DNA of 64,000 bases from Clostridia bacterium (lineage in GTDB: Bacteria > Bacillota > Clostridia > UBA1212 > UBA1255). The notes beneath the pieces are model-generated. The model was not told where the DNA came from, did no database searches, and was given only the letters and a program-made list of their open reading frames with translations. The stretch lies in assembly GCA_045546695.1 (NCBI GenBank), contig JAZQDE010000049.1:7288-71287 (forward strand). Reading direction: 5' to 3'. Shown piece after piece: positions 6,263-43,805 of the stretch; the first letter of the stretch is position 1; each line of letters begins with the position of its first letter. Made by a program: the position numbers and the translations under genes.

Positions 6263-6275
6263 TTCTAACCCTTTT

Positions 6276-8775: not shown

Positions 8776-8866
8776 ATGCACCATCCTTTCAAATAGTATT
8801 ATCTTTTTATTTTACTATAGAAAAGGCAAAAAGTCTATTCTTTATTAAATAAAAATGAATGAAAAA

Positions 8867-8893
8867 AAGCTCTGCCTATGGCAGAGCTTTTAA
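8867..8893 (-). terminator. rho-independent terminator ending the ABC operon (bidirectional-capable)
   Basis: AAAAAAAGCTCTGCC-TAT-GGCAGAGCTTTT forms a 10-bp GC-containing stem. An A-run flanks one side and a T-run the other. It lies 22 nt past the stop of the 8915-10261 gene. Confidence 0.65.
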
Positions 8894-8914: not shown

Positions 8915-10261
8915 TCAATAATCAACCAATGTAGACCAGAGGTCATTACATGTTGTCTGGAGTTCTGTAAAGGCATTTTCAAGTGATACACTACCTGCCA
9001 TTACTTTTGGAATAATCTTAGCCATTTCTGTGTTGATCTTAGTAGCGATTTCGTAAGGCATACGACATACTACCTGACCTACGATACTTGCTGTCTGTGC
9101 TTCAAATACGAAAGCATCCCAGTTCTTATTTACCCAGTCTGCTTCGTCAGGATATCTCCAAGAAGAGTCTTCTTTGAGGCTACCTACTACAGGAACTGAT
9201 GCACCGGGCTGTCCGTTATAAGCTCTCTGACCTTCCTCTGTGTAGAAGAAAAGTGCGAAAGCAGCTGCTGTATCCTGATTTCTTGTTCTGTTATAAACGC
9301 CGAAACCTGAAGAACCGCAACCAAATCCTCTGTTCTGACCATTTTCACCAAAGCCGGGGAATGCAACGATATCCCAGTCAACGCCTGCAGCGTCATAGTC
9401 TTTACCAGCGCTGAGAACCTGAGGATGTACGCAATACTTGAATACAGGAGTACCTTGAGTCTTGGTGCTCGTACCTGGATTGATGTAACCTGCTAAAGCA
9501 GCATCAATACATTCCTGCATAGCCTGGAGTGTACGACCATCTTCATCAATAAATGTAATCTTCTTCTCTTCTGTGTCGCACCATGTGCCACCAACAGCTG
9601 ATTCAAAGAATGTTACATATACAGGTGAATATGTAAGGTCAATGTTTGCACCATAGAATTTCTCGTTTGTCTCTGATGTAGCTTCTGTAACAGTCTTGGA
9701 AATCTCAAGAAGGTCACTCCAAGCCCAGTCATTCTTAACCATTGTAGCAAGGTTGTACTCTTTCAATTTGTCTACGTTGTATGTAAAGCAAATTGCGTTG
9801 TAGTCTCTTGATACATAGTACAGACGACCATCAATCTTACCTAACTCATAAATACCCATGTAAACGTCTGACAAGTCAAGGTCAAGAGCTGCAACATAGC
9901 CCTCAAGTGGCATGAGACCATTACATGTAACAGCATACTCGTAAATCTGTGTCTCAGCGAAGTAGAAAACGTCACCGATTGTACCACCGTTTACACGTGT
10001 AGCTGATGAGTCAGATGAATCGAGCTTAACAGATGCATTTGGATATGCACTCTCAAATGCTTTGATAAAAGAAGTAGCTGCTCTCTTAGCAAAAGCATTT
10101 GACACATTGAATGTCCAAGTGATCTCACCGGATACGTTTACATCGTAATCAGCGTTAACGTTAGTAACGTTTACGATAGGTGCCTGATTACATGCAACCA
10201 TTCCGAATAAAGTGAGAGTTACAATGAACAAGACAATTGCTCTTTTTACAATCTTTTTCAT
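8915..10261 (-). CDS. ABC transporter substrate-binding lipoprotein (extracellular solute-binding family 1, CUT1 type)
   Basis: 448 aa. Signal peptide plus lipobox LFGMVAC. GTIGDVFYF and the overall pattern match sugar binding proteins. It is a paralog of the next gene. Confidence 0.85.
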   Translation of the reverse strand: MKKIVKRAIVLFIVTLTLFGMVACNQAPIVNVTNVNADYDVNVSGEITWTFNVSNAFAKRAATSFIKAFESAYPNASVKLDSSDSSATRVNGGTIGDVFYFAETQIYEYAVTCNGLMPLEGYVAALDLDLSDVYMGIYELGKIDGRLYYVSRDYNAICFTYNVDKLKEYNLATMVKNDWAWSDLLEISKTVTEATSETNEKFYGANIDLTYSPVYVTFFESAVGGTWCDTEEKKITFIDEDGRTLQAMQECIDAALAGYINPGTSTKTQGTPVFKYCVHPQVLSAGKDYDAAGVDWDIVAFPGFGENGQNRGFGCGSSGFGVYNRTRNQDTAAAFALFFYTEEGQRAYNGQPGASVPVVGSLKEDSSWRYPDEADWVNKNWDAFVFEAQTASIVGQVVCRMPYEIATKINTEMAKIIPKVMAGSVSLENAFTELQTTCNDLWSTLVDY

Positions 10262-10363: not shown

Positions 10364-11842
10364 TTAATGTGTGTTTACAGCATCCTGTATCTCCTGCATG
10401 TAAATATCAAATGAAATATCATCTGATTCTGCATAAAGACGGATTGCCTCGCCTATTGCATCGTTAATCTCTGCAGATGGAGCAAGTGGCAGGAATGAAG
10501 TGATTTCTGCCGGATAATCAAATGCACTATACAGTGAAAATACAGATGTGTTTTTACCATCTACAGGGAAATTTCTCCAATATTTCTTTGCGTTTGCTGT
10601 GATAAGAGCAGGAACACGATATCCATCCTCGCCTGTTATGGCAACAGCGGCTTCTTCAACCATCGCATAAAGAGCGAATGTGATTGAATTCTTGATTGTG
10701 TTTTCAACGTTCTCTTTTTCTTCTGCCAAAAGAACCTCATCAGTTATTGCATCGTATACGCCATTAACAACGTTGTAGTGTTCACGGTTAAATGCGGCTA
10801 AACCAATTGTCTGAACACCGATTGTAGCAACACTCGTTTCAGTCTTTTCATCATAGAATCTCGGGAAATGAGCAAGCTCCCAGTCAAAACCGTCTGAATT
10901 GCTTCCGGCAAGACCATTTGCCCATCTTACGATATCTGAGTGATTACAGATAACCATAGCATAATTTGCAAGATCTGCTGCAGAAAGTTCTGCAGGTGTT
11001 TTATCCGCAACAAAACCTGTTTTAATGAAGTTATTTGCAAGATATTCAATACCGCTCAGAACAGCAGGATTTGTAAGTTTTAATGCAATATCATTTTCAG
11101 CAAAATCTACCTCATTGTAAAGCGCTGCACTCTTGCTTCTTGCAAATGCACCCCATACTGAATAATCAGCATAATCCATAACGATAGGAGACTTGTGACC
11201 TGCTTCTACCAGAGCTTTTGCAATCTCTTCTACCTCTTGCCATGTCCAGTCATCTTTTGGTACGACAGGGTTGATTCCGATTTCATTCAACAAATCGATA
11301 TTAAGAAGCATTACGGTGTTGTTGTATTCAACAGGACACATAAACAGTCTTCCGTCATACATTGAATTTGCAAGAGCAGCCGGATAGAAAAGCTTTGAAG
11401 GATAAAGCTTTGTATACTCATCACTTGTATAGTCGATAACGCCTTCACTGTGTTCGCTGAGGTCAATTATATAATCTTTTTCTGCATACTTTGCAAGCAT
11501 AGCTGAATCAATGGTGAAAACGTCACCAATTGTTCCGTTTTCGATTCTTTCTTCTAATGTTGAAAAATATTCTTCAGCGCTGTCTGCAAGATCAAGCTCT
11601 ATGTCTACGCTCGGGTACTGCATTACAAAAGATTGCATATAGTTGAAGCTTGCAATCTCACCGTCATCACAACGATACGAAGAGAATACAACAGAGCCGA
11701 TAAGTTCTTCAGGAATCGGTACAGGAGTTGATAAGCCGATGAATTCGTCCTCATCATCATCTTTTCCCGAACATGAGATGAGTGACAATACCATAATTGC
11801 GGCTAACAACATTGTAAGGATTTTAATTATATTTTTATTCAT
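10364..11842 (-). CDS. ABC transporter substrate-binding lipoprotein (family 1)
   Basis: 492 aa. Lipobox LSLISCSG. GTIGDVFTI is shared with its neighbour. Binding-protein fold pattern. Confidence 0.85.
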   Translation of the reverse strand: MNKNIIKILTMLLAAIMVLSLISCSGKDDDEDEFIGLSTPVPIPEELIGSVVFSSYRCDDGEIASFNYMQSFVMQYPSVDIELDLADSAEEYFSTLEERIENGTIGDVFTIDSAMLAKYAEKDYIIDLSEHSEGVIDYTSDEYTKLYPSKLFYPAALANSMYDGRLFMCPVEYNNTVMLLNIDLLNEIGINPVVPKDDWTWQEVEEIAKALVEAGHKSPIVMDYADYSVWGAFARSKSAALYNEVDFAENDIALKLTNPAVLSGIEYLANNFIKTGFVADKTPAELSAADLANYAMVICNHSDIVRWANGLAGSNSDGFDWELAHFPRFYDEKTETSVATIGVQTIGLAAFNREHYNVVNGVYDAITDEVLLAEEKENVENTIKNSITFALYAMVEEAAVAITGEDGYRVPALITANAKKYWRNFPVDGKNTSVFSLYSAFDYPAEITSFLPLAPSAEINDAIGEAIRLYAESDDISFDIYMQEIQDAVNTH

Positions 11843-11863: not shown

Positions 11864-12901
11864 TTACTCAATGACACCAATTCGTTCGATACCGGCAACA
11901 AGTCTCTTCTGACCAAGAATATATACTATTAATACAGGTAACATTACCATAAGACATCCTGCGAAAAGAACCGGTTCTGAAGAAGCTCTCAGAGTTTCAC
12001 TGATAGCACCGCCATCATAACCTAACTCCTCAAGATAATTCTGCTGAATCTTACTGAGGGATTCCTGGAATGTATTATGTTGTGGCAAGTAAGTATATGT
12101 CAATGTCTCCTGGTTATCATTCCAATGCCATACAAACGAGAATATAAATACGATTGTGAGCGCTGATTTAACAAGCGGGAACATAATCTGACCAAATACT
12201 CTGATTGGACCGGCGCCGTCGATTCTCGCTGCATCGTCCATAACGTCCGGAATTCTCTGGAAGAAGTACATATAAATCAAGATGAACAACGCGCCTCTCA
12301 GACCATGTCCGAAAAGTGACGGAATCAATATAGCGTAGAAACCTTCTGCCATTCCCATCTGTGACCACATGAAGAATGATGCTGTGATCATTGTTTGCGG
12401 CGGGATTAAGAGAATAATGATAACAAATAACATTATAAACAATCTGCCTCTGAACTTAAATCTACCTAATGAATATCCTACAAGAGCACATGAAACGGAC
12501 TGAAGAATCGCACTGCCAAGTGAAAGAATGATGGTATTCAGAAGAGTTGAGTAATAATCACCTATTCCGGGATCAACCAAATCAAGATCCAGTGACGGAT
12601 CTACTGAAAAGACATCCAGACCCATCCATGCTTTCTGGAAGTTTTCCCAGTTAATATGTGTAGGTATGTACTGTACAGTAGGATCCATGTAATCCTGAGC
12701 TGACATCATCGACGTCGTAAAGATGTAGATAAATGGTAACAGGAAAAGATAAGCAAGCTCTATGAGCACATAGTATAAGAAAACTCTTCCGATTACAAAC
12801 TTAATCTTTTTCTTTACTTTATAGCCAAGATTTTCGTATTTAGTGTAAAGGCCAAGGAAAAACTCCTTGATTCTATTTATCAATCGCTTCATCTCAGCCA
12901 C
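11864..12901 (-). CDS. carbohydrate ABC transporter permease (MalG-like)
   Basis: 345 aa with about six TM segments. The EAA-like loop is DAARIDGAGPIRVFGQIMFPL. It has an enlarged extracytoplasmic loop. Confidence 0.85.
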   Translation of the reverse strand: MAEMKRLINRIKEFFLGLYTKYENLGYKVKKKIKFVIGRVFLYYVLIELAYLFLLPFIYIFTTSMMSAQDYMDPTVQYIPTHINWENFQKAWMGLDVFSVDPSLDLDLVDPGIGDYYSTLLNTIILSLGSAILQSVSCALVGYSLGRFKFRGRLFIMLFVIIILLIPPQTMITASFFMWSQMGMAEGFYAILIPSLFGHGLRGALFILIYMYFFQRIPDVMDDAARIDGAGPIRVFGQIMFPLVKSALTIVFIFSFVWHWNDNQETLTYTYLPQHNTFQESLSKIQQNYLEELGYDGGAISETLRASSEPVLFAGCLMVMLPVLIVYILGQKRLVAGIERIGVIE

Positions 12902-13770
12902 CTCCTTGTGAAGAGAATGAATATGAGAATAACAATTAATGTCATCAACATGTAAAGCCAGCTAAGAGCAGCTCTCTCTCCGTATTTATCCATATTGTTG
13001 AGAAGTCCCATTACCGGGTTAGATGAATCAACGAATGAGTCAACAAGCGCGTAAATACAGTTCAGGATAACGAACGGAGATACGTATGGTAATGTGATAT
13101 GCCAGAATGATTCCCATGCAGACGCACCGTCCAGGTCAACAACTTCATAAAGGATATCCGGAACACTCTGAAGAGCAGCAAGGAAGATAAGAATCTCTAC
13201 ACTACTTCTCCACATTATGTGACCAATTTCTGAGGCAATTCCTCCGAATCCTCTCAGGAACTGATTGTTTGCAACAATCTGACCGAAGATACTAATATTA
13301 CCAACGTCATCACTGAAAAGATATGACATGATAACACCGGAAAGGATAACCGGGATAAAGAATATAACTCTGAAGTAAACTCTTCCGGGGAATTTCTGCT
13401 TTAACAGTACTGCAACAAACAATGCAAATGCAACGATTACAGGTACCTGATAAAGAGCATTCAAAAATGAATTTAACACAACCTGACCCGATTCAGGATC
13501 CTGAATAACCTCAATATAGTTATCAATACCTACCCATGTACTAAGGCCTGTATTACACCACAAGTCCTGTCCGTTAACGTTGTAAAAACTCATTTTTACA
13601 GACATGAAGAGTGGAATAAACAAGAACCAAACGAGGCCTATTAACCATGGAATTGAGAAAACCAAGCCTTCAAGATTACGTCTTCTTTCGAAAGATAAAA
13701 ACGTAGTCTTAACTCTTCTATGAGCCAGCTGTTTCTTTGTTAAAACTTTTGTTTTTTTATTATCTGCCAT
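12889..13770 (-). CDS. carbohydrate ABC transporter permease (MalF-like)
   Basis: 293 aa. Polytopic, with the EAA motif region LDGASAWESFWHITLPY. Confidence 0.85.
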   Translation of the reverse strand: MADNKKTKVLTKKQLAHRRVKTTFLSFERRRNLEGLVFSIPWLIGLVWFLFIPLFMSVKMSFYNVNGQDLWCNTGLSTWVGIDNYIEVIQDPESGQVVLNSFLNALYQVPVIVAFALFVAVLLKQKFPGRVYFRVIFFIPVILSGVIMSYLFSDDVGNISIFGQIVANNQFLRGFGGIASEIGHIMWRSSVEILIFLAALQSVPDILYEVVDLDGASAWESFWHITLPYVSPFVILNCIYALVDSFVDSSNPVMGLLNNMDKYGERAALSWLYMLMTLIVILIFILFTRRWLR

Positions 13771-13773
13771 AGA

Positions 13774-16332
13774 TTACTCCCCCTTAGCGCTTATTACGCT
13801 ATATCCTTGACCATCAAATGATAATACGTCATTTGTGTAAGGATCCGTTATCTCAATTGCTTCTTTTTCGTAGCAAACGTATACTCTTGCTCCGCCTGAA
13901 TATTCGGTGCAGTATACTTCAGCATCAGCTGAAAGCTTGTAATGGTTTACAATCTCTTCGTTAACGAAAGGAGCAACAGCTTCTTCAATTGCTTTATAAA
14001 CCATTTCAATTGTACCAAGCTGATCAAGCAGTTCATACTCTGATTTATATAATGTATTGTAATATGTCCACTTAAGCAACGCAGATTCTTCTTTTGTTAC
14101 TTCAATTGAACCTAATGCACCATATTCAATGGATCTGAGCAATGCATCATATTCTACGTCACAGTTATTAATTGGCATTGAATAGTAAGGTACTATGCCA
14201 TGGTAAATCATCTGTACAAACGGAATCTCCTCATCAAGTACAACGTGTGAAGACTTTGTCATAGACATATCGTAAATTGATGATACGAAAGGAACAACAT
14301 ATGAATTACCATTGTATACTGATACAGTATCAAATTTTTCATTGTATTTGATAAGCCAGTCAACATATTTATTGATTAACTGAATTCTGAATAATGCATT
14401 GAACTGGTTATAGTCTGAATAAAGCTGATCACCAATCTGCTGAAGAGTAACGCCTGATACATCATAGTCGCGGAGTCTACCGATATTCTTTGAAAGAATC
14501 TTACTCTCAAAGTATAAAGGACTGAGAATATATCCGTTTCCACCTCTATAATAAGCACCGGAAACTGTCTTGAGCTTATAGTTCAGATAGAACGTACTTG
14601 GAATCTTCACGACAGAATTTCTGAGTGTAGCACTGCCTGACGGTGAACCATACAGGTACAATAAGTTGTTATCATAGTTGACTGTTATACCATTCTCCTC
14701 TGCCCATGCGTTGAATTCTTCCATGTCAAGGCCATCATCATAGCTGCTGTCGGGCTTAAGTTTAGATGTGGAATTCCAGAAATAACCATTATTCATCCAA
14801 CCAACCATTGTCATGGTAATATCTGACATTCCCTTGTTCTTGAGATCATTATAAATATTCTGAGCATCCTTGAATGTTGTCATTACCTTAAGCTGGTTTG
14901 TTACGCCACCTACAGCATTTTCTGCACCCATGAATGTTCTGAGATTCAGAATATCAGCATCAGAAATGTTTCCGATTGTAACGTCAACTCCGTATCTTTC
15001 TTTCCACTGAGCAATCATTTTTGTCTGAACAGTCTTTGCAAGGTCGTTGTAACTATATTCTTTTTCTTCAGATAAATCAAATCTGATACGCTGCTCTACG
15101 TCACCGAGCTGCATAGTTCTTGTAATATCTGAATATGAAGAACCTGACTTTGAAACCTGTCTGTTGAAATACTCTCTATATGTGTACTGAACGTATATCG
15201 CATAGAACGGAACGTTTCTTACACCCGGATTTGATACTCTCAGGTATGCATTTGCTTCACCCTGTTCAATAAATCCGGTAATCATTGAGTTTGCATATTT
15301 ATTAACGTCTTTTGCATCCTCACTCAGATTTTCAATAATACCATATGCCCCAAGAAGGATTGTATGGTTGTTATATCTTGGCTGAGATTCAGCATCCGTT
15401 ACAGAGTCAATTGTATAATCCCAACCGTAAATTCTTTTTGCGTATTCACTTGAGTTACTTACTCTTGATACTGAGAAGTCAGTAACTGCACCTGAACCAT
15501 CCGGAACAACAAAGTAACCGGATTCACCGCTACGATGAGCAAAAAGATATGGAAGAACAGCAAGAGATGAAAGAAGTGGTCTTTCTTCTGCTGTCTGATC
15601 TTCAATATCATCGCTCAGATATGGGCGCTCGATGATACCATTTTTAGGAATGAAATATACAACTTCATTACCATCAAGTGTAATTTCCACAGAAAACTCG
15701 AGTTCGAGGTCTACCATTTCATAAGTCAACCTGATACCATTTTCGATATAGTATACATTTTTAACATGTTCCTGAGTATTTACACCGACAAACAGACCAC
15801 TGTCTCGGCCGGACATCTTTGTGTATCCAATGAATACAGGTGAAGTAATAATATTACCGGTAGAAGTACCCTTCTTGAAAATATCTATATCACCCGGATC
15901 ATCTTCTGTCGCCTGAATCGGCTCAGGATAACTTCTGAAGATCTCACCTGTTGCATTATCCTTGAAAATAAACAAGTCATTCTTTGGGGAATAGCTCATT
16001 GTGAGATATTCATTCTGTGCAATAACTGTCATTCCCTCGTCTCCGAGCATCTGACCGTTAATGCCTTTATCTTTCAGTGGTGCTGATACCTGTACGTCGC
16101 TCTTTATACCTTCGTCGCTGAATGAGATTAAAGATGATTCAGCAAAACCCACCTTGATAATAAGGAAGCCGAGTAAAAATACTGTAACAAGAGCTACAAC
16201 AATCTTAACAATTCTGAGGTAGAATTTCTTTTTTGCCATCTTGGCAGCATATGCTGCAGCTTCTGCCTCATCAATATATAAAGAAGTTTTTTTGGTTTCA
16301 ACATCAATATCTTTTTTCTTTTTCTTAAACAA
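13774..16332 (-). CDS. large N-terminally membrane-anchored extracytoplasmic protein of unknown function. It may be a TIM-barrel glycosidase-like family of the DUF5696 type.
   Basis: 852 aa. A Lys-rich N-terminus (MFKKKKKDIDVETKK) is followed by a single TM (IVKIVVALVTVFLLGFLIIKV). The extracellular body has motifs VPDGSGAV, MTMVGWMNNGYFWN and PFVQMIYHGIVPY. It is translationally coupled to the genes on both sides. Confidence 0.7.
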   Translation of the reverse strand: MFKKKKKDIDVETKKTSLYIDEAEAAAYAAKMAKKKFYLRIVKIVVALVTVFLLGFLIIKVGFAESSLISFSDEGIKSDVQVSAPLKDKGINGQMLGDEGMTVIAQNEYLTMSYSPKNDLFIFKDNATGEIFRSYPEPIQATEDDPGDIDIFKKGTSTGNIITSPVFIGYTKMSGRDSGLFVGVNTQEHVKNVYYIENGIRLTYEMVDLELEFSVEITLDGNEVVYFIPKNGIIERPYLSDDIEDQTAEERPLLSSLAVLPYLFAHRSGESGYFVVPDGSGAVTDFSVSRVSNSSEYAKRIYGWDYTIDSVTDAESQPRYNNHTILLGAYGIIENLSEDAKDVNKYANSMITGFIEQGEANAYLRVSNPGVRNVPFYAIYVQYTYREYFNRQVSKSGSSYSDITRTMQLGDVEQRIRFDLSEEKEYSYNDLAKTVQTKMIAQWKERYGVDVTIGNISDADILNLRTFMGAENAVGGVTNQLKVMTTFKDAQNIYNDLKNKGMSDITMTMVGWMNNGYFWNSTSKLKPDSSYDDGLDMEEFNAWAEENGITVNYDNNLLYLYGSPSGSATLRNSVVKIPSTFYLNYKLKTVSGAYYRGGNGYILSPLYFESKILSKNIGRLRDYDVSGVTLQQIGDQLYSDYNQFNALFRIQLINKYVDWLIKYNEKFDTVSVYNGNSYVVPFVSSIYDMSMTKSSHVVLDEEIPFVQMIYHGIVPYYSMPINNCDVEYDALLRSIEYGALGSIEVTKEESALLKWTYYNTLYKSEYELLDQLGTIEMVYKAIEEAVAPFVNEEIVNHYKLSADAEVYCTEYSGGARVYVCYEKEAIEITDPYTNDVLSFDGQGYSVISAKGE

Positions 16333-18436
16333 GATAACTCAACTCCTTTACCAATTGTGCGATAAATGTGAACAGCTGACTTGTCAATGCATATACGAGA
16401 ATGAATAACATTGCAACTGCTGAAACACCGACAACTGTTATGAAAAATACAACAAATGCTTTAACCGGGTGGAAGCCGTGTATACCCTTGATGGCAAAGT
16501 ATACAAGGAACACTACCAATATCATAAGGATTGTATTCGCAAGATTCCACAGACTTTGTTCATTAAGAGTAAGAACATGTGTCAAAGCATGAAGTGGAAG
16601 TAATGCTATCATCCACGGAACGTGACAATATGCACCTGCGATAAATACGTCTCTGAGACGACCTTCACCATACATGATTGTTGTAACGCCGTAGTTAACA
16701 ACACACATAACAAGCCATGGAATCAATGAGAACAATATTGTCTCAAATGGATTAATCAGGTCGAGAGAAGAGCCTCCTCTGAATATAAAGCTTGTAGCAT
16801 ATTCAGAAGCAACTGAAACGGCAGTGTAAAGTAACATTACAAGCACCATATCTGTATAAGAACCCTGGTTCTCATATCTGATACCTTCAAATCCATCAAC
16901 AGGATGACGTACCACGCCATAGCTTCTGCTGAAGAACTTCTTGACCTTAGTAAACGCATTGTTTTTCTCCGGAGGAACACCATACTTACGTTTTCTGTAA
17001 CGTTTGAATGTCTTCCACGCAATAGCAAGTAACAACAATGCGATGATTGAGATAACAATAACAGTAAAGTAATCTCTTATAAAATATGTTCTGATCTCGT
17101 CAAACGCATCAGAAGCATTTGTGGCATCTTCTGCATCTACAAAATAATCGTATGCTATCTTGTAGTTCTCTTCCTGCATCTTACGCATTTCTATTTTACC
17201 CATGTTAAGAAGAGCAAGTGTATAGAAGCTGTCTTTTTCAAGAATTTCTTTCCAGATCGGAAGAGATTCATCATATTTACCATCAATAAAGAGATTGTTG
17301 GCTTCATGAACCGTCTTGATAAAATCTGTCGGCTCGTAAACTGTAATTGTTGAAGTTGCGTTATCAAGAACGTATACCCTACCTCTGCTGTCAACTTCTA
17401 TACTGATTGGAACTCTGATCTGACCGTATCCAAGACCATCACTGCCGAATACACAAAGGTTGTTGCCCCATTCGTCATATGAATAAATACGGCAATATCT
17501 CTGATCGAGAATGAACATGTTACCATTGCTGTCAACTGTTACATCGATAAATGTCTGGTTAACATCTGAATAGTTGTTTGACAAGCTCGTATCACTGAAG
17601 TTGAATGATCCGTACAATACGTCAGAACCTGCAATGTTAATCTTTCTTACCTGAGGTGGTGTATCTGTTGTTGTAGTCGCATACATATAACCATCGTCAG
17701 ATGCGTAAATGTTTGTGAAAGTATACGGGAGCGTAACGATAGAACCTTTTCTGTCCTCTCTGTCCCAGAGTACTTTTGCAATTGATTCCCAGAAGGAAAG
17801 GTTTACTTTGTTTGTGCCATAGTAACTTCTGAATTCACCATCTGCACTAAGCTGCATGATACCGTTATAGTCACCTGTGTTACATACGTAAATATAACCT
17901 CTGGTATCCTTTGTAACTTTTAAGGGCTGATAGTTAAAATCAACTGATAAAAGTTCACTTTGCGGCATTTCATATGAATATCTCAAGTTACCATATTTTG
18001 TATATTCAACAAGTCTTGAATTACCTGAGTCTGCTACAAGGATTGTACCTGAACCTGAATCAACGTAAACACACATAGGATTCTTGAGTGCTGACTGATC
18101 TTCAGGATATGTACCCTTACCTGATACTTCCAATACAAAATTATAATCAGAATCGTATTTTACTATTCTGTTGTTACCGGTATCTACAACATAAATATTA
18201 TCATCATCATCAATGAAAATATCTTCCGGTTTGCTGAGTTTACCCTCTTCTTTAGTAGGTTTATCAATAACTGTGCAAACTTCGTATGCTGCCGGAATCG
18301 GATAAGGCTTATCCAGAGCACCGTTGTACATATTCAGATAATAGTTCGGATATGGAGTATCGGCACTTACAGTAAACGTACATGTGAATACGAGAGCAAA
18401 TAACAGGAGTAAACAAACATATTTTTTCATTTTCAT
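16325..18436 (-). CDS. secreted NHL-repeat beta-propeller fused to a C-terminal Yip1-like multi-pass membrane domain
   Basis: 703 aa. Signal peptide MKMKKYVCLLLLFALVFTCTFTVSA. There are five or six NHL blades (YVVDTGNNRIVKYD, ILVADSGNSRLVEY, IYVCNTGDYNGIMQL, MFILDQRYCRIYSYD, VYVLDNATSTITVYE). After a TM helix and a basic cytoplasmic linker come about five further TM helices resembling Yip1-domain proteins. Confidence 0.8.
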   Translation of the reverse strand: MKMKKYVCLLLLFALVFTCTFTVSADTPYPNYYLNMYNGALDKPYPIPAAYEVCTVIDKPTKEEGKLSKPEDIFIDDDDNIYVVDTGNNRIVKYDSDYNFVLEVSGKGTYPEDQSALKNPMCVYVDSGSGTILVADSGNSRLVEYTKYGNLRYSYEMPQSELLSVDFNYQPLKVTKDTRGYIYVCNTGDYNGIMQLSADGEFRSYYGTNKVNLSFWESIAKVLWDREDRKGSIVTLPYTFTNIYASDDGYMYATTTTDTPPQVRKINIAGSDVLYGSFNFSDTSLSNNYSDVNQTFIDVTVDSNGNMFILDQRYCRIYSYDEWGNNLCVFGSDGLGYGQIRVPISIEVDSRGRVYVLDNATSTITVYEPTDFIKTVHEANNLFIDGKYDESLPIWKEILEKDSFYTLALLNMGKIEMRKMQEENYKIAYDYFVDAEDATNASDAFDEIRTYFIRDYFTVIVISIIALLLLAIAWKTFKRYRKRKYGVPPEKNNAFTKVKKFFSRSYGVVRHPVDGFEGIRYENQGSYTDMVLVMLLYTAVSVASEYATSFIFRGGSSLDLINPFETILFSLIPWLVMCVVNYGVTTIMYGEGRLRDVFIAGAYCHVPWMIALLPLHALTHVLTLNEQSLWNLANTILMILVVFLVYFAIKGIHGFHPVKAFVVFFITVVGVSAVAMLFILVYALTSQLFTFIAQLVKELSYLV

Positions 18437-18450
18437 AATCTGTAACCTCC

Positions 18451-19329
18451 TTATTTAATACCTGAATGTGCCATTGTATCCATAACACGGCTTTGCTGAA
18501 TTATGAATATTATGATACTTGGCAACGTCATAATTAACGATGAAACTGCTGTCGCACCTGTTCTTGCAACGTTACCGCCAATTGTTGACATAAAGAACGC
18601 AAGTGTTCTTAAGTTCTCTTCATAAATGTATGTGTTTGATGTACCTGCATCGCCCCAGATACCACCGAATGAAAGGATGATAGCTGTTGCCTGAGCATTC
18701 TTCAGAAGCGGCAATGCAATCTTTGTATACAGCTTCCATTCACTTGCACCGTCAATCTTACCAGCCTCAAAAATCGAATCAGGAACCTGATCCAGGAACT
18801 GTTTCATAAGGAAGAGGATTGTCGTTGAAGCCAGACCCGGGATAATATAAACAAAATATGTATTATCAATACCGAGCTTTGTAATAATCAGGTATGAAGG
18901 AATACCTGCAGCTGCTGTTACGAACATCAGGGCTGTTGTAATGAGCTTGAACAAAGCTTTATGTCCTGGGAACTTATGCTTTGAAAGCGGATAACAAGCC
19001 ATTGTGTCTACCATAATCAATGCAAACAAGTAACAGATAGTTACAAATATTGTATTGAAAAGATATCTTGAAAATGGTACCAAGCTGTTTGATGTTACTG
19101 TACTGAGGTCAGAGAAGTTCTGTAGCGTCGGATTCTTAACGAAGAACGTCGGCGGATACAGGAACAATTCCTCCGGTGGCTTGAAGGCCGTGCTTACGAG
19201 GTAAATCAAAGGAAGGAATGATAGGATACCTGCCAGGGACAGGAATATAACAATTATCTTACCAGAGTAATCTCTATGTTTTCTCGCTTTTTTTAAATAA
19301 TCAACGTCAACTTGTAACATATGCATCAC
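18451..19329 (-). CDS. carbohydrate ABC transporter permease (MalG-like)
   Basis: 292 aa, polytopic. EAA loop EAGKIDGASEWKLYTKIALPLL. Confidence 0.85.
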   Translation of the reverse strand: MMHMLQVDVDYLKKARKHRDYSGKIIVIFLSLAGILSFLPLIYLVSTAFKPPEELFLYPPTFFVKNPTLQNFSDLSTVTSNSLVPFSRYLFNTIFVTICYLFALIMVDTMACYPLSKHKFPGHKALFKLITTALMFVTAAAGIPSYLIITKLGIDNTYFVYIIPGLASTTILFLMKQFLDQVPDSIFEAGKIDGASEWKLYTKIALPLLKNAQATAIILSFGGIWGDAGTSNTYIYEENLRTLAFFMSTIGGNVARTGATAVSSLIMTLPSIIIFIIQQSRVMDTMAHSGIK

Positions 19330-20312
19330 TCCTTATCTTGTAAGAGTTTGAACGCAATACGTCCAAGACCCAATATTAATATTGACAACACAACGGCTAT
19401 CGCCGACGCGTAACCAACCTCAAATCGTGTACCGGAGTAGTCTCCTAAGTGCAACATAATCGTAAGACCTGCATCCTCCGGAGACGGGTGACCTGCCATC
19501 GTAGAACCTACAGTAAACGCACCTGTAATCTGTAATACGGCTGCGAAGAGCAACTGTGGCATTGTCTGCGGAATATCAACATACAGAAGTCTCTGGAATC
19601 TTGATGTAACACCGTCAACGGCAGCTGCGTCATATAGCTCGCGGTCAACGCCTCTGAAACCGGCAACAAATGACAAGAATCCTGTACCAAGTGATGACCA
19701 CAAAGCAACTACGATTGTAACCGGCATGATAAGGTTAACGTCCTGAGTCCACATGATAGGCTCATTTATGAAGCCCATCTTCAAGAGTAACGCATTCAGG
19801 TAACCTGTACTATCGTTAGAGAAGAGTACTCCCCATACAACCGTCATCGCTACAGCACTTGTAAGTGACGGAGCATAGAATGCCAGAACGTAGACTGCTC
19901 TGATTTTGTCAGGAACCTGGTTGATAAGCCATGCAAAGAAATATGATGCAACATATCCACAAGGACCAACAATAACAGCATAATAGAGAGTGTTACTGAA
20001 AGCCTTTAAGAAGAGCGGGTCATCAACGAAAAGGTACTGATAGTTTGTAAGACCATTGAATACCGGATCTTCAAGAATACTCCAATAAGTAAAGCTCAAT
20101 GCTGTTGATGCAATCAACGGAAGCAGTGAAAAAATTATAAATACTATAAAGAATGGTGCGATGAGACCATATGACATTTTATAACGCCACATCTCATGCA
20201 GTGTGTAGCCAAAACGTTTCTCAACGTTGAAGAAACGTTTTTTAGGCTTTTGAACTGCAGGCACAGCCGATTCTTTTTTGTTTGAATCTTTATTTTTTGA
20301 CACTCTACTCAC
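19326..20312 (-). CDS. carbohydrate ABC transporter permease (MalF-like) with basic N-terminal extension
   Basis: 328 aa. A Lys-rich cytoplasmic N-terminus is followed by six TM segments. EAA loop DAAAVDGVTSRFQRLLYVDIP. Confidence 0.85.
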   Translation of the reverse strand: MSRVSKNKDSNKKESAVPAVQKPKKRFFNVEKRFGYTLHEMWRYKMSYGLIAPFFIVFIIFSLLPLIASTALSFTYWSILEDPVFNGLTNYQYLFVDDPLFLKAFSNTLYYAVIVGPCGYVASYFFAWLINQVPDKIRAVYVLAFYAPSLTSAVAMTVVWGVLFSNDSTGYLNALLLKMGFINEPIMWTQDVNLIMPVTIVVALWSSLGTGFLSFVAGFRGVDRELYDAAAVDGVTSRFQRLLYVDIPQTMPQLLFAAVLQITGAFTVGSTMAGHPSPEDAGLTIMLHLGDYSGTRFEVGYASAIAVVLSILILGLGRIAFKLLQDKE

Positions 20313-20315
20313 CTC

Positions 20316-23300
20316 TTAATCTTCCTTAAGACTATGGAGACATGAACCAATACTCGGATCAGGACCATCGGCCAGGATATCCCAATATTGTTCTTGTTTA
20401 CGTCTCATCTCTTTATCTATCTCACGGATAGCATCTTCGAGAGCAACTCTTGCACTCTGTCCCTGCAATACTGTCTGGTTAAGAGCTGTAAGCAAGTACC
20501 TTGATGTGTAGTAGTCACCAAGAGTCTGAGGAGTCTCTTTGATCCAATCCCACTGAGCATTGATAACTTCGAGTTCTTCTGCTGTATAAGGTAATTCCTG
20601 TACAGCATTCTTGTTCGCAGAATTCCATCTGCCGGCAACACCGAATGTAGCTTCGATTTCTCTGCCATATTCTGCCTGGACGTCGTCAGAAGCCCACCAC
20701 TGCATGAATACCCATGAAGCTTCTTTTGTCTTTTCAAAATCAGGTCTTTCGTGATTGTTGATCATAATCGAACATGTAGCAACAGCGTTCATTGATCTGT
20801 CAATTACTACCTCACCTGCTTCGTTGAGTTTAGCCTGTCCGGGAACCGGCTTCATAGCCCATTTACCTTCAAGCTCAGGAGCTGCGTAATTGAGCTGACA
20901 ATAGAAGCCCATATCACCGATACCAATCGGCATCTCACCTGATTTAAATCTCATATAGAAGTTTGCAGCGTAAACGAAATTGTACTGTAAATAGAGGTTA
21001 CAATATTCAATAAATCCATCATAAGCTGCCTGCGTACCAAGAGCAGATGTCATACCATGTTCATCATAGAATGTACCACCGTGCTGGTAGAGGAATGGTG
21101 TGTAGCCACCTACACCATAGTTATAACAGAAATCGTAACCTGAGTTTGTAAGAATCGGAATAATATCATATACGTCTTCCCATGTATCAGGAGCAACGAT
21201 TCCTAATTCTTCAAATATATCAGTTCTGTAGAAAAGTGCTGACCAACCCTGTGTCTCCGGGAAACCATAACAGTGATCCTTGAAGTTGATAGGTTTGAAT
21301 ACTTCTTCATAATATGAAGATGCCTTAAGGTCATCAAATCCGAGGTATGCCTCGCCGTTGAACTCGCCTGATTCAAATGTATCAAGCGGAACAAGCGCAT
21401 CTCTTACAGCGTATTCAAACGGAGTACCTACACCGATTGATATAGCAACATCAGGAGCAGTACCTGCAACATAACGTGGCATGATAAGACCTTCAGAAGC
21501 ACCTGCAACCATGTTGAGGTTTACCTTGATACCATATCTTGAAGTAAAGTCTTCACCAATCATGTTCTCGAGAATTGTAACATACTCTCTGGCACGTGAT
21601 ACATATACGGTAATCTCTGTGTCAGCATCTGATGCGCCTTCTCTCAGACCATAGTTAGAATATTTTTCTGTATCGAATGAATCAAAGAATCTTACAACAC
21701 CAACTTTAAGATTCTGCCAACCTGAGCTGACTGTACCCGGATAATCATATCCATCTGTACAAAGAACCATGTAGTCAGCAGTCATAGGCTGATCTTTGAT
21801 TGATGAAAGTGTCGTACTGAGACCTGAAAGAGCATTGTTGATATCGTTAAGAGATGTAGGAATCTTTTCCAGATCTTCTTCGAACTTTTCAAAGAGCTCC
21901 TCTGCAACCTGAATTGCTGATGCGTAAGACGGTACCTTATTACCATTCAGAGCAAGAATCTCTTTATATGTCTCAGCAAAAAGCTCCTTGTATGTAACAA
22001 CGTCATCCTGGATAGAAGGAATGTACTTCTGCAAATCCCAGTCACGGTTTGCATCAACAATATAGCCACCCGAGCTTGAACGTGTAGAAGCAGTAATCTT
22101 TACGATCTTGTTGATAAGAGTTGAAATTGAATCCATTGACTCTTCAAGTGCTACAAGAGCATGTCTGAGTGGACCAACCTTATTTGTAATAGTAATCGTA
22201 TGTGTGCCTGCTTCAAGATAGAACATGTAAGGATTCTGGTTTGCATCACAAAGAGAAGTAGCAATCCAGCCATCTGAGTATGGGAAGCAATATTCCTTCA
22301 TCTCTTCAAAAGGAATCTCGCCGTCAATCTTAATTTCTCTGTAGCATGCAACATATGTGAGTTGTGACTTGTATCTGAAACCGATCTCGTACCAGCCTGT
22401 CTCAGGAACCTCAAATGACCATTGAGCCATGTCGCCACCTGTATTCCAGTTGTCACCGCCGAAGATATTGTAAAGTGTCACTTTATAAGGAGATGCATTA
22501 ACGTCAGAAGATGTGCAATAGTTGCCATCTGTTTCCATACGTGTACTGATACTTGTGACAAAGTCAGCAACCTCAAGTTCAGTCTTGATGATGCCACCCT
22601 TATAGATAGCGCCTTCGCTGAAGCCGTTTGCTGTCTTGTAATCTTCGTATGAACCAATAACAGGAGGTGCTACAAAGCTGATACCATTGATAACACCGGG
22701 TTCTCTGTCAAATGTCATGGTGACAATATGTGTACCCTCTGTCATATAGAATCTGTAAGGATCCTTATAAAGGCCATCAGGGTTTGTCATAATCTGACTG
22801 TTCTGCTTATAAAGAATCATTGTCTTACCACGGATCTGGTTGCCTACGATATCTTTGTTGTTAGCGTAGTCAGTATCATAGAATGTATATGTACGCTTGA
22901 GTGACAGGTTACTTGCTTCAGCAAAAGGATATTTCTCATCAATTGTCAATGAAACAAGCATGTCAGCATACTTTCCACTCAAAAGATAATAATCGAGGTT
23001 CAATGAATACAATGCCGATTCAGGAATTGTAACCTCGAATGTAATAGTAGTCTTGCCTGTAGAAGCGTACAAGCCATCTTCGATGTCCGTAACGGTAACT
23101 TCTTCGTCCTTGGATGGATCTGTATATTTAAAGCCATCTTTGAACTTATCTACTTGTGAAAACAGCTTTAATGCTTCGGACGCATCATCACCCTCGACAA
23201 CAACAGCGCTGTCGGGATTGCCTGTCTCATAAATAGTAAGATTACCATTAGCGTCAGTTGAGAAATCAAGACTGATATCCTCACCTTCGTAATACTTGTA

Positions 23301-23534
23301 ACCCTTCGTTGCATATTTGCTGAGTACCTTACCGTACTCCAGCAAACTGTTATCAAGTCTGTCTTCGTTAGTTATAAACGGATTGAAATCCATCTCATCA
23401 TAATTCTCATAAGCAAATTGCTGCGCACCGGGTTCTTTGGTGAGAGAATTTACTACGAGGACTGCGATGAGAATAACAAGAAGACCGGCTACGACCGATA
23501 ACTGAATAATTCTCTTCTTCTTCTTTTTATTCAT
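20316..23534 (-). CDS. giant membrane-anchored solute-binding protein: an N-terminal TM anchor, a ~550-aa extension of unknown function and a C-terminal family-1 binding-protein domain
   Basis: The preferred start is MNKKKKKRIIQLSVVAGLLVILIAVLVVNSL at 23534, with GGAAGG 9 nt upstream. The 23591 start adds 19 implausible residues. The C-terminal ~480 aa have the binding-protein pattern (periplasmic-binding fold type II sugar binding proteins). It is the first gene of the operon. Confidence 0.75.
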   Translation of the reverse strand: MNKKKKKRIIQLSVVAGLLVILIAVLVVNSLTKEPGAQQFAYENYDEMDFNPFITNEDRLDNSLLEYGKVLSKYATKGYKYYEGEDISLDFSTDANGNLTIYETGNPDSAVVVEGDDASEALKLFSQVDKFKDGFKYTDPSKDEEVTVTDIEDGLYASTGKTTITFEVTIPESALYSLNLDYYLLSGKYADMLVSLTIDEKYPFAEASNLSLKRTYTFYDTDYANNKDIVGNQIRGKTMILYKQNSQIMTNPDGLYKDPYRFYMTEGTHIVTMTFDREPGVINGISFVAPPVIGSYEDYKTANGFSEGAIYKGGIIKTELEVADFVTSISTRMETDGNYCTSSDVNASPYKVTLYNIFGGDNWNTGGDMAQWSFEVPETGWYEIGFRYKSQLTYVACYREIKIDGEIPFEEMKEYCFPYSDGWIATSLCDANQNPYMFYLEAGTHTITITNKVGPLRHALVALEESMDSISTLINKIVKITASTRSSSGGYIVDANRDWDLQKYIPSIQDDVVTYKELFAETYKEILALNGNKVPSYASAIQVAEELFEKFEEDLEKIPTSLNDINNALSGLSTTLSSIKDQPMTADYMVLCTDGYDYPGTVSSGWQNLKVGVVRFFDSFDTEKYSNYGLREGASDADTEITVYVSRAREYVTILENMIGEDFTSRYGIKVNLNMVAGASEGLIMPRYVAGTAPDVAISIGVGTPFEYAVRDALVPLDTFESGEFNGEAYLGFDDLKASSYYEEVFKPINFKDHCYGFPETQGWSALFYRTDIFEELGIVAPDTWEDVYDIIPILTNSGYDFCYNYGVGGYTPFLYQHGGTFYDEHGMTSALGTQAAYDGFIEYCNLYLQYNFVYAANFYMRFKSGEMPIGIGDMGFYCQLNYAAPELEGKWAMKPVPGQAKLNEAGEVVIDRSMNAVATCSIMINNHERPDFEKTKEASWVFMQWWASDDVQAEYGREIEATFGVAGRWNSANKNAVQELPYTAEELEVINAQWDWIKETPQTLGDYYTSRYLLTALNQTVLQGQSARVALEDAIREIDKEMRRKQEQYWDILADGPDPSIGSCLHSLKED

Positions 23535-23690
23535 ACGCTCAACCTTCCATATTGTAGATTGTGAAACGATTATTAACTCAAAACATAACACAAAATACGC
23601 CCAAGTCAGATTTGGGCAAACTTAACAAAATGATTATATAGATTTTATGCAACAGTGTCAACTGTAACCTTTTTATTTTTTAAGATATTT

Positions 23691-29326: not shown

Positions 29327-31486
29327 TCAGGCGTTGTAGTATTTATGGTACAAATACACAGGAATTGCACTCCAGCCGTGGCATAAACTGCCCGCATTAT
29401 CAAAATCCCACGCGCCGTTTTCTGTTTCCCAGAAAGAAGTAGCACCGTTAAAGAGCATATTTCCCCATTTTTGGGCAATCTGGTCGTATACAAAATCAGA
29501 ATACGTATCTCCAAGCATCAGAAGCGCTTCATATTTGAATATAGAAGCACTGAGGCTCGTATCAATCATAGAATCATCGTATGCGAGTTTATCAGCAACT
29601 ATCATGACTTTGTCCTTTGGCACAAGACCTGCGTAAAGAGCAAGTGCATTTGCAAGTTTGCAATAATGATCTGCCTGTTTTCCGTTGACAATAAATGTAG
29701 TATAGCAGCGCTTTTCTTCATTCCAGAAAGTGGAATCAAAAGATTCTTTGATTCCCTCGCACAGCATCTCAAACCATGAAGCTTTTTCCATAAAATCTAT
29801 ATCCTCACTCGTATACGGGACAAGCATTTTTGTAAGCTTTGTCATCCGGTCGAGAGCAACCATATACAAGCAAGACAGCGGTGCATCATAATTGTCACGG
29901 TTATTTCTGTCGCGCACATCTGCCATATATCCGCCGCTGAGGCCGGGCATCCACTCATAAAATTCCCAACATGCTTTGTCGAACCACGGACCAACAAGAT
30001 CCCTGCCACCGGCTTTTCTCCAGAAAGTGGAAATAATCCGCTCTGCGCACGGCCACATTTCGAGACCGAAATCTGTGTCGCCGCTATATAAAACATATTC
30101 GTATAATTCAAGAATCCATTGGAGTGAAAATGACGGTATAGTTATGTGAGATTTTGCCGGTGCACATATTTCAAGAAGACCGCTCGGAAGCTGGCTTAAG
30201 CTAAGGAGCTTTATGCTCGCCTTTGGCATATCAAACTCTTCAAAAGCATAATATCCGCAAAGAATCTGATTGCGCGAATCCATCGCATATAAGGCCTGCT
30301 CTCTCCACGGGGTGTCTTCGTAATGCTCGTGCATACAAAGTCTCAGAGTATCTACACAAACATCATAAATTTTATTTTGTAAATAGTCAGCGCTGTCAAG
30401 GCGTCTGATCTTTTTCACAGGATAAACTGTCGGCAGTACGCCTGCGTAATAAAGGTCAAAGTTGCCACTTTCTACCAGAAGTTCGATATATCTGAGTCCG
30501 AATCTCTTATTGTATTGTGTGAAATGTTCTATCCCCTCACCAGAGCAAGTATATTTGCAGGCAAAACATCTGCCGCCCACACTGCTTCTTACCCTCAGGT
30601 CATCTAAGTGTTCTCCGTAACCAATATTTACCACTGTGCCACGGTCAGCTTCTATAACGAGGTCAAATACGCCTGCCGTTTCTTTTCCGAGGTCGATTAT
30701 AAGATATACACCGTCATCGCAGTCACAATTAACAGAAAATGGCTTTTCACCATCTAAAACAAACGGAGCCGCACCTGAGCCGGGAGCTACCATGCCAAGC
30801 TCACGCGCAGATAAATACGCACGCTGCATTTTTTGTGCCGTAGTATCGCCCGGTGCATTGTCTGCATGCATGAAAACGCCCTGCGCAACAATTTTTGCCA
30901 GTGGTCTACCTTCGATAACAAGCTTCGGTATCGGTCTTGGGTTCATTCTCATAGGCCTGCCAACCACGACTGCTTTTTGCCAGTTATTGTCTGCAGATTT
31001 TGTTGCGTCATATTCAAAAGCATAACCGAGCTGACCTGTAATCCTCTCCATAGGACCATTTCTGTATTCTTTTGCAACTGCGCACTCTACATTGGTGTCG
31101 CTGCTGAGAATGATTGTATTCCCTTCTGACAAGGTAAAGAGCAAGCCGGCTCTTCCGGTAATATATGTAAAAGAGCTCTGTCCCTGGTAATACGCAAGAA
31201 TGTACACTTTGTTTTCACCGGGAATGACATAATCTGTCACATCAAGTGTGTCATAACACTTGTACTCCGGAAAATCGGCATATTGACCATAGTCTACAAA
31301 ACGGTCGTTAATCCACAACGCGTACTGGCTGTCTGCGCTGATTCTGAAAGTGTATTGGGTGTTTTCATCAATCTCTTCACCTATAATAAACGATGTTCTG
31401 AAATGAACGTACAGATTTTCATTTATATCATATCCGTCGGCTGTCCATATCCATTTGCAGTCAGTATTATTCATGAATTCACCCAC
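29327..31486 (-). CDS. alpha-L-rhamnosidase-like glycoside hydrolase (GH78-like), cytoplasmic
   Basis: 719 aa with no signal peptide. The N-terminus is KWIWTADG...LYVHFRTSF. A central concanavalin-like region is followed by a C-terminal six-hairpin domain ending LCHGWSAIP, a pattern seen in the bacterial rhamnosidase family. Confidence 0.6.
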   Translation of the reverse strand: MGEFMNNTDCKWIWTADGYDINENLYVHFRTSFIIGEEIDENTQYTFRISADSQYALWINDRFVDYGQYADFPEYKCYDTLDVTDYVIPGENKVYILAYYQGQSSFTYITGRAGLLFTLSEGNTIILSSDTNVECAVAKEYRNGPMERITGQLGYAFEYDATKSADNNWQKAVVVGRPMRMNPRPIPKLVIEGRPLAKIVAQGVFMHADNAPGDTTAQKMQRAYLSARELGMVAPGSGAAPFVLDGEKPFSVNCDCDDGVYLIIDLGKETAGVFDLVIEADRGTVVNIGYGEHLDDLRVRSSVGGRCFACKYTCSGEGIEHFTQYNKRFGLRYIELLVESGNFDLYYAGVLPTVYPVKKIRRLDSADYLQNKIYDVCVDTLRLCMHEHYEDTPWREQALYAMDSRNQILCGYYAFEEFDMPKASIKLLSLSQLPSGLLEICAPAKSHITIPSFSLQWILELYEYVLYSGDTDFGLEMWPCAERIISTFWRKAGGRDLVGPWFDKACWEFYEWMPGLSGGYMADVRDRNNRDNYDAPLSCLYMVALDRMTKLTKMLVPYTSEDIDFMEKASWFEMLCEGIKESFDSTFWNEEKRCYTTFIVNGKQADHYCKLANALALYAGLVPKDKVMIVADKLAYDDSMIDTSLSASIFKYEALLMLGDTYSDFVYDQIAQKWGNMLFNGATSFWETENGAWDFDNAGSLCHGWSAIPVYLYHKYYNA

Positions 31487-40840: not shown

Positions 40841-40926
40841 CTACCTTGATTTGTTACGTAATTGTTAACATTGATTTTACTATAGTCCCCGTTTATATGT
40901 CAAGGTGAGTATTTCCCGGGAAATAC

Positions 40927-42117: not shown

Positions 42118-42198
42118 TCAATTTTCTGCCCTTTTGCCCTCTTGCTGCCATTTTTTGGCAATTTGACGTCTGCCAGGGCCTTTCACCCTTGCTTCCTC

Positions 42199-42437
42199 CC
42201 GGTTTTGCAAATAGTTCCCCGCCTTCATTTGCAAAACCGCAAGTGAGAGATAGCCCTTTTTGCCTGCTCTACCTCGGTTTTGCAAATAATTTGCCGCTTT
42301 CATTTGCAAAACGGCATAGCGTAATGGCCGACCTTGCACCTGATGCCCCGGTTTTGCAAATAATTTGCCATTTTCATTTGCAAAACCGAGATGATAAACA
42401 GCGTAAAAAAGGCCGGTTTTGCAAATGCAAAACCGGC
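42199..42437. repeat. tandem array of hairpin repeats. Three 40-nt units sit 75 and 74 bp apart, followed by one loop-deleted unit.
   Basis: The units are at 42199-42238, 42274-42313 and 42348-42387. Each is CGGTTTTGCAAAT-[14-nt loop AATTTGCC(G/A)(C/T)TTTC]-ATTTGCAAAACCG, a 12-13 bp perfect stem. The fourth copy at 42410-42437 is GGCCGGTTTTGCAAATGCAAAACCGGCC, which is the stem without the loop. Spacers are 35, 34 and 22 nt. Spacers 1 and 2 are weakly similar to each other (TTGCCTGCT vs TTGCACCTGAT). Confidence 0.8.
42404..42437 (-). terminator. rho-independent terminator of the 42463-43791 lipoprotein gene
   Basis: On the minus strand a 12-bp GC-rich stem (GGCCGGTTTTGC/GCAAAACCGGCC, 4-nt loop) is followed directly by TTTTTT. 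It lies 25 nt past the stop codon. Confidence 0.7.
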
Positions 42438-42462
42438 CGCGGTTAAACTTGGCTCAGCAGGC

Positions 42463-43791: not shown

Positions 43792-43805
43792 AATATACCT
43801 CCTTG

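Follow-up and report, generated by a model that had tools for sequence, protein, structure and literature searches.

The DNA considered here is a stretch of 64,000 nucleotides from a Clostridia bacterium (GTDB lineage Bacteria; Bacillota; Clostridia; UBA1212; UBA1255; NCBI GenBank assembly GCA_045546695.1, contig JAZQDE010000049.1, positions 7,288 to 71,287 of the forward strand), referred to below as the window. It carries a gene (20316..23534) for a long solute-binding protein, the first of an operon of nine genes that also encodes four permeases of the ATP-binding cassette (ABC) type. The long binding protein is very probably built as an anchored receptor in which two modules resembling the carbohydrate-binding modules (CBMs) of family 35, together with a helical bundle, precede a family-1 binding domain. 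The architecture is real, conserved and uncharacterised, and the ABC receptor and the CBM-like modules are each of a known kind. All coordinates are those of the window, and all features described for the protein and its operon lie on the minus strand.

An earlier reading of this DNA, made from the letters and a list of open reading frames (the sequence-only reading), described the product as a protein of 1091 amino acids (aa). The open reading frame is real and its coordinates, 20316..23534, match; the strand was left unstated, and the length of 1091 aa is an artefact of the longest frame, which spans 20316..23591 and gives that length when counted from the first GTG. The real product is likely 1072 aa plus stop, beginning at the ATG at 23534 (MNKKKKKR...), because a ribosome-binding site, GGAAGG (23543..23548), lies 8 nt upstream of this codon, because close homologues begin with MNKKKKK, and because an identical protein of 1072 aa is present in the database (P0001). 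Directly after the sequence M-N-KKKKK-R follows a hydrophobic stretch of 23 residues (I9-L31; 23442..23510), a pattern common to all close homologues. No cysteine is found among residues 1-50, and the protein therefore lacks a lipobox, so that a membrane anchor behind the KKKKKR stretch, as originally described, agrees with what is seen. The stretch may serve as a transmembrane (TM) anchor, and a cut by signal peptidase I after V-N-S is also possible. The poly-lysine and TM anchor are found in close relatives; many distant homologues instead have an ordinary cleavable signal peptide, also without a lipobox, and AXA-type sites occur among them.

The C-terminal part of the protein (aa ~630-1072; 20319..21647) is a complete family-1 solute-binding domain of the CUT1 type. 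The Pfam family SBP_bac_1 matches aa 655-954 over positions 10-307 of its 307 profile positions (E 5e-18; 66.6 bits, cut-off 26), in line with the completeness earlier ascribed to the domain, and SBP_bac_8 likewise matches. In sequence-profile comparisons with the PDB the domain matched Lin1841 (5YSB, E 3e-30), 5CI5 (E 9e-27) and CbpB (7X0I, E 1e-19), and the solved binding proteins were covered nearly full length. The C-terminal part comprises 447 aa, matching in length an entire binding protein of the CUT1 type. Judging by these matches, the C-terminal half is a genuine binding domain of family 1. Two genes for ABC permeases with a BPD_transp_1 domain (Pfam), A1 (19326..20312) and A2 (18451..19329), adjoin the long binding-protein gene, and this arrangement is kept in all loci.

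The extension ahead of the binding domain is about 585 residues long. Residues ~40-625 gave zero matches to Pfam above threshold and zero to NCBIfam. An AlphaFold2 model of aa 45-640, built on an alignment of 87 sequences, has a mean pLDDT of 93.2 and a pTM of 0.91, and contains two all-β modules and four long helices. A short helix (aa 67-77) is followed by a first β-sandwich, module 1 (aa ~87-290; 22665..23276), which was recognised from the model and from its alignment to module 2 with hhalign. Module 2 (aa ~314-452; 22179..22595), also a β-sandwich, is marked by the model, by structural and profile matches and by conservation. Next come the four long helices, which form a bundle in the secondary structure assigned by DSSP (aa ~454-580; 21795..22175), a β-strand with the pattern QP-x-x-x-DY... 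(aa 584-592; 21759..21785), recognised from the order of secondary structure and from conservation, and a linker helix (aa 605-618), before the binding domain starts at aa ~637. The extension was thus found to be a multimodular region of its own, as had been suggested, and the domain annotation and structure prediction proposed for it at that time yielded no family above threshold and two CBM35-like sandwiches.

The two modules are homologous to each other (hhalign probability 99.6%, E 7e-25; BLASTP E 3e-5). When the model of aa 45-640 was compared to the PDB with Foldseek, the best matches were glycosidases bearing CBM35 or CBM6 and isolated CBM6 modules, with E-values from 1e-4 to 1e-8 and a probability of 1.0. 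These included the CBM35 of Xyn30D (4QAW), the CITases 5X7G and 3WN*, isomaltodextranase (5AWO), the CBM6 of an agarase (2CDO) and CBM6E (8J3X). A profile of module 2 matched the CBM35 of Paenibacillus CITase among PDB sequences (E 7e-11) and, more weakly, CBM35s of CsxA and of C. thermocellum and a CBM6, while the full-length profile reached the CITase CBM35 at E 3e-11. For several homologues a match to the Pfam family CBM_35 (PF16990) is recorded. The modules also have motifs of their own, N-x-x-GG-x-x-W and IDGEIPF. The modules are distantly related to CBM35 and CBM6, and in the predicted structure they have the β-jelly-roll sandwich fold of CBM35.

The two modules differ in how they end. 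Module 1 terminates in two strands (HIVTMTFDRE, then VINGISFVA), while module 2 has the strand HTITITNKVG only, after which the helices begin at once, and a single strand (..TADYMVLCT) comes after the helices. Since module 1 has two closing strands and module 2 only one before the helices, the strand at aa 584-592, in which D587 is found in 85 of the 87 sequences, is most simply read as the closing strand that module 2 lacks. As this strand would complete the sandwich, the 127-residue helical bundle would be an insertion in module 2. The bundle itself belongs to no Pfam family, and its PDB matches are solely compositional, to designed coiled coils.

Tandem binding domains exist in other ABC systems, for example GlnPQ, and a second, degenerate binding-protein domain that arose by tandem duplication had been named beforehand as the outcome that would overturn the view of the extension as a separate module. 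Such a domain was looked for and practically excluded. BLASTP of aa 45-640 against aa 641-1072 gave an E-value of 0.69, and comparison of the profiles of the two halves with hhalign (33 homologues) a probability of 0.1% (E 0.61). A Pfam scan of aa 40-640 found no solute-binding protein family even at an E-value of 10. The extension is predicted to be all-β with an all-α bundle and not to form alternating α/β lobes, and its 50 best Foldseek matches included no binding protein and no whole-chain match.

At 90% identity the full-length homologues fall into 111 clusters, with 83-100% coverage, 25-100% identity and lengths of 930-1150 aa. Where the source names them, they are called 'extracellular solute-binding protein' only. 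An exhaustive search with the N-terminal 537 aa returned 1419 clusters at 50% identity, 1079 of them at E<=1e-10. Among the best 150 of the 1419 clusters, 118 are at least 900 aa long, with a median of 968, and the module always lies at about aa 90-520. Shorter matches are consistent with truncated contigs, and among the matches of the N-terminal part there was no sign of the extension module in another architecture. The numbers of clusters found with the full-length protein and with its N-terminal part also mean that the long gene is not a chance product. In particular, the idea that two genes were joined by an error of sequencing or assembly is refuted and carries next to no probability, as over 100 homologues, 25-100% identical and drawn from independent assemblies, share the unbroken full-length architecture. 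To go by these homologues, the long fusion is a large, conserved and unnamed family of gut and soil Firmicutes and not a one-off.

The nearest genomes are the metagenome-assembled genome (MAG) RGIG6223 from sheep rectum, at 89% identity, followed by MAGs of Oscillospiraceae, Ca. Egerieisoma and 'Mageeibacillus sp. UBA'. The search for genome loci that used a narrow alignment reached close relatives only, all of them uncultured Clostridia from gut or rumen. Conservation is equally high in the extension and in the binding domain. Within the extension it peaks in module 2, and aa 401-440 are more conserved than any other window of 40 residues in the whole protein; residues ~81-160, in module 1, are a lineage-variable insert.

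Within module 2, two conserved aromatic residues fall at positions that bind sugar in a characterised relative. W423 is present in 84 of the 87 homologues and aligns in HMMER with Trp507 of CBM35-1 of PsCITase, while Y439 (82 of 87) aligns with Tyr519 of the same module. Trp507 is the stacking platform at the canonical variable-loop site of this CBM35, and Tyr519 also stacks on glucose (PMC5408701). The index of the PsCITase chain is offset by 19 from the numbering used in that publication, which was verified on Pro500, Gln502, Trp515-His516 and Tyr519. W363 is a further conserved aromatic residue. At the level of the alignment, the pattern of module 2 fits a retained sugar-binding site. In module 1 the position equivalent to the platform residue is Trp in 81 of the 87 homologues.

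The long binding-protein gene is preceded by a sigma-70-type promoter, TTGACA-17 nt-TATAAT (23633..23661), which matches the consensus at 12 of 12 positions and is identical in two relatives (loci L005 and L006). Since this perfect promoter lies upstream and the only strong terminator lies at 8891..8865, the nine genes are taken to form an operon of about 14.7 kb with the long binding-protein gene at its head, the position that the sequence-only reading had also given it. Upstream of the operon is murD, which is unrelated. The leader and promoter together (23535-23661) are almost invariant when compared to L005 and L006 (about 9835-10000), the proteins of which are 89% and 79% identical. A 12-nt insertion in this region is present in the window copy only. 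Inside the leader (23535-23632) is a terminator-like site, a hairpin followed by a run of T (23598..23618), and an almost invariant leader with a hairpin suggests an operator or an attenuator. The Rfam matches in the window are two tRNAs, and the operon leader has none.

Downstream of the permease genes A1 and A2, the fourth gene (16325..18436) encodes a secreted protein of 703 aa in which an NHL β-propeller is fused to a multi-pass Yip1 membrane domain, and the fifth (13774..16332) a DUF5696 protein of 852 aa with an N-terminal TM helix. Two further permease genes, B1 (12889..13770) and B2 (11864..12901), were recognised by domain matches and synteny. The last two genes encode binding protein 2 (10364..11842; 492 aa) and binding protein 3 (8915..10261; 448 aa), and the presence of two further binding proteins in the operon, already remarked on from the letters alone, is thus borne out. 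Both are lipoproteins with a lipobox (...LISC and ...MVAC, respectively). The three binding proteins are highly divergent, binding proteins 2 and 3 being 23% identical and the comparison of the long protein with binding protein 3 giving an E-value of 2.1. A partitioning of the substrate range among them, as the sequence-only reading suggested, is conceivable. The operon ends at an intrinsic terminator with a 12-bp stem, six GC pairs and a T-run (8865..8891).

The genes occur together well beyond the window. The order long binding protein, permease, permease, NHL/Yip1, DUF5696, permease, permease and one or more binding proteins is constant, as is the strand, and it was found to be identical in 37 of 37 species-level genome loci and in seven distant loci (25-32% identity), including that of Paenibacillus lactis; synteny was counted over the loci with enough DNA. 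Function probably resides in the cassette as a whole and not in the lone gene. CUT1 systems commonly share ATPases of the MsmK type. With its four permeases and three binding proteins, the nine-gene operon contains no gene for an ABC ATPase, and a scan of the whole window by regular-expression motifs, a crude test, detected none either. No gene for a transcriptional regulator is found between murD and the terminator in the window. Regulators of the AraC or LacI type flank distant copies of the cassette.

The gene for the NHL/Yip1 protein sits between the two permease pairs. Its product matches the Pfam families NHL (E 2e-15) and Yip1 (E 1e-9) and NHL propellers in the PDB, and the propeller is six-bladed. 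The two domains are encoded by one gene here, and by two in Lachnospiraceae-like and Paenibacillus copies of the cassette. The DUF5696 protein was assigned to its Pfam family at E 2.5e-116. No relative in the PDB was detected by sequence, no NCBIfam match was obtained, a relaxed Pfam scan gave no glycoside hydrolase (GH) family, and no literature on DUF5696 was found. An AlphaFold2 model (pLDDT 78, pTM 0.82) gave in Foldseek a whole-chain match to the GH129 structure 5OPQ (E 1e-30; TM-score 0.68-0.70, normalised to the target), followed by NagBb (E 5e-23) and then by GH101, GH36 and GH31. In the alignment of DUF5696 proteins D278, D640 and H711 never vary, and D554 and D700 are near-invariant. 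The ectodomain of the protein would comprise aa ~65-852. DUF5696 belongs to no GH family of CAZy or Pfam, the GH129/GH101/GH36-like fold being a prediction. Due to this predicted fold and the N-terminal TM helix the protein is a candidate membrane-anchored glycosidase, and DUF5696 may represent an unrecognised family of glycoside hydrolases.

Taken together, the long binding protein is probably a receptor that serves an ABC sugar importer at the cell surface and includes an arm for glycan capture. An uncleaved N-terminal signal-anchor would keep the protein in the membrane and leave about 1040 residues outside. The CBM-like modules, chiefly module 2 with W423, would keep glycan polymers or large oligomers at the cell surface, where the membrane-anchored DUF5696 neighbour could trim them. 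A released oligosaccharide would then be taken by the C-terminal binding domain and passed on to the adjacent permease pair, while other products would enter by way of the lipoproteins, binding proteins 2 and 3, and the second permease pair. ATP hydrolysis would be provided by a shared MsmK-type ATPase encoded elsewhere. The structure of the gene, the type of anchor, the folds and homologies of the domains, their conservation, the synteny and the signals of the operon are what the analysis shows; we infer that the modules bind carbohydrate, that DUF5696 is a hydrolase, which binding protein works with which permease pair, and that an ATPase is shared. A broader version can be envisaged, in which the receptor, NHL/Yip1, the DUF5696 glycosidase and the two ABC importers form one physical complex. 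This would be a surface machine widespread in Firmicutes, a Gram-positive counterpart of the Sus systems of Bacteroidota made from entirely different parts, its specificity retuned by lineage as the mannan, β-1,2-glucan and xylan contexts might indicate; we hold this version to be possible but rather doubtful.

Glycan capture is a reasonable reading of the extension because its modules resemble CBM35 and CBM6, and on balance it is slightly favoured here, but a number of observations weigh against it or against the scheme built on it. The Pfam CBM_35 profile scores 18.6 bits in the long binding protein, below the cut-off of 28 (E 0.0025), and for this reason the modules are termed CBM35-like and not members of CBM35. 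The profile of module 1 matches a CBM35 set weakly (E 0.035-0.05), and in the protein studied here, as in its two closest relatives, the Trp of module 1 is replaced by Gln244 (nt ~22803-22805); sugar binding by module 1 may have been lost in this lineage. DUF5696 is 10-14% identical to the GH129 structures, and its putative hydrolase nature is read from the predicted fold. The glycan-degrading genes that flank the cassette differ by lineage, and the window copy has no adjoining gene for a carbohydrate-active enzyme (CAZyme). No published study of a fusion between a binding protein and CBM-like modules, or of the cassette, was found in the searchable literature. Moreover, in every sampled locus the fusion is accompanied by NHL/Yip1 and DUF5696, which fits docking between these proteins equally well.

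Such docking would make the extension a protein-protein scaffold that holds the binding protein on NHL/Yip1, on DUF5696 or on both, with the conserved aromatic residues as the interface. Besides the sub-threshold scores for CBM families, it would accommodate the helical bundle, for which no carbohydrate-related relatives are seen, and the many distant members that have a cleavable signal peptide and neither lipobox nor TM anchor, and which need another means of retention at the surface. However, the conserved Trp of module 2 lies at the canonical position of the CBM35 sugar platform, and the best relatives by structure and by sequence are all true carbohydrate-binding modules. A scaffold is accordingly considered unlikely as the explanation, although the scaffold and capture roles could coexist. 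The extension might also be thought of as a passive stalk, which replaces the lipid anchor and lets the binding domain extend across the thick cell wall and return to the permease. A tether would suit the position of the binding domain at the opposite end of the chain from the N-terminal anchor, with about 585 residues between them, and the four long helices in this region. Against this, the extension is conserved to the same degree as the binding domain, with module 2 as the most conserved segment of the protein, specific aromatic and Gly/Asp positions are kept in more than 90% of the 87 sequences, and the pTM of 0.91 suggests that the assembly is compact and ordered, all of which makes a mere tether very improbable.

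The binding domain and the extension each resemble known proteins, and both depart from them. The C-terminal 447 aa are like CUT1 binding proteins such as Lin1841 (E 3e-30 over chain residues 5-311) and CbpB; two permease genes come after the binding-protein gene, and an ATPase gene is lacking, as it is in many CUT1 loci. Lin1841 of Listeria innocua is a binding protein for β-1,2-glucooligosaccharides (PDB 5YSB). However, Lin1841 and CbpB are lipoproteins of about 400 aa, while the long binding protein has a TM-type anchor and some 585 additional residues, and at such a distance the ligand is not transferable. The CBM35-1 of the CITase from Paenibacillus sp. 598K (5X7G) shares with module 2 the same β-sandwich (profile E 7e-11), and the platform Trp and the second stacking Tyr align. 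While CBM35 and CBM6 sit on enzymes, the modules described here sit on a transporter receptor, score below the Pfam threshold, have their own motifs and, in module 2, an apparent insertion of 127 residues. In GlnPQ, OpuA and TM-anchored binding proteins the binding domain is likewise tethered by protein and not by lipid, but the extra parts in those systems are more binding domains or the permease, whereas the extension described here has no kinship with binding proteins. The GH129 enzymes ZgGH129 (5OPQ) and NagBb (5WZR) have a whole-chain fold like that predicted for DUF5696, which differs in its N-terminal TM anchor.

At the level of the whole cassette, an analogy can be drawn to the polysaccharide utilisation loci of Bacteroidota, in which SusD, SusE and SusF are surface glycan-binding proteins, and to the Gram-positive polysaccharide utilisation loci (gpPULs). 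What they would share is the logic of surface capture, a surface glycosidase and a dedicated importer that are encoded together. There is no kinship in sequence or fold to SusD, the importer here is of the ABC type and not TonB-dependent, capture and receptor reside in one chain, and there is no regulator gene in this copy. A gpPUL is defined by a co-located transporter, CAZyme and regulator. The cassette has the transporter genes (four permeases and three binding proteins), its enzyme is a candidate by its predicted fold, and the window copy has no regulator.

Gram-positive ABC sugar receptors are usually treated as simple lipoproteins of 400-500 aa for small oligosaccharides, and the long family differs from this picture. 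Should the modules turn out to hold polymeric glycan, Gram-positive cells would have a so far undescribed way of linking its capture, trimming and import at their surface. This would also provide functions for DUF5696, for bacterial Yip1 and for the unannotated region of about 585 aa in thousands of database entries named 'extracellular solute-binding protein'. The question is directly testable, since the cassette is present in the cultivable Paenibacillus lactis, beside mannan-degrading genes.

In P. lactis (L048; assembly GCA_007679615.1, contig VEGV01000042.1) the flanking genes encode a LacI regulator, a GH26 enzyme and a GH2 β-mannosidase. Another copy (L044, the locus of P0096) is flanked by genes for SOGP of GH94, PF10091 and GH35, a gene set of the β-1,2-glucan type (compare PMC8861115). 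In a third (L003) the flanks are of the xylan type, with GH115, GH43, a GDSL protein and an AraC regulator, and in the lineage of the window they are housekeeping genes. β-1,2-Glucan was considered as the substrate on account of the likeness to Lin1841 and the support from L044, but was not adopted, as other loci point to mannan or xylan. Because the contexts are mixed between lineages and the window copy has no flanking CAZyme, no substrate is assigned.

Some other genes in the window encode putative surface or glycan-related proteins, and all of them lie on the minus strand. An α-L-rhamnosidase-like protein of 719 aa (Bac_rhamnosid6H, GH78-type) is encoded at 29327-31486, 6 kb upstream of the operon, with thrC, hom, ask and murD in between. 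A second cluster of genes for surface proteins is located at 37844-46345. It encodes a lipoprotein of 994 aa without a Pfam match, a lipoprotein of 442 aa with a CBM9-like domain, a lipoprotein of 404 aa without a match and a GH127-like protein. At 5162-7823, directly downstream of both metA and the terminator of the operon, a gene for a membrane-anchored protein of 515 aa without a Pfam match is followed by one for a surface protein of 391 aa with leucine-rich repeats.

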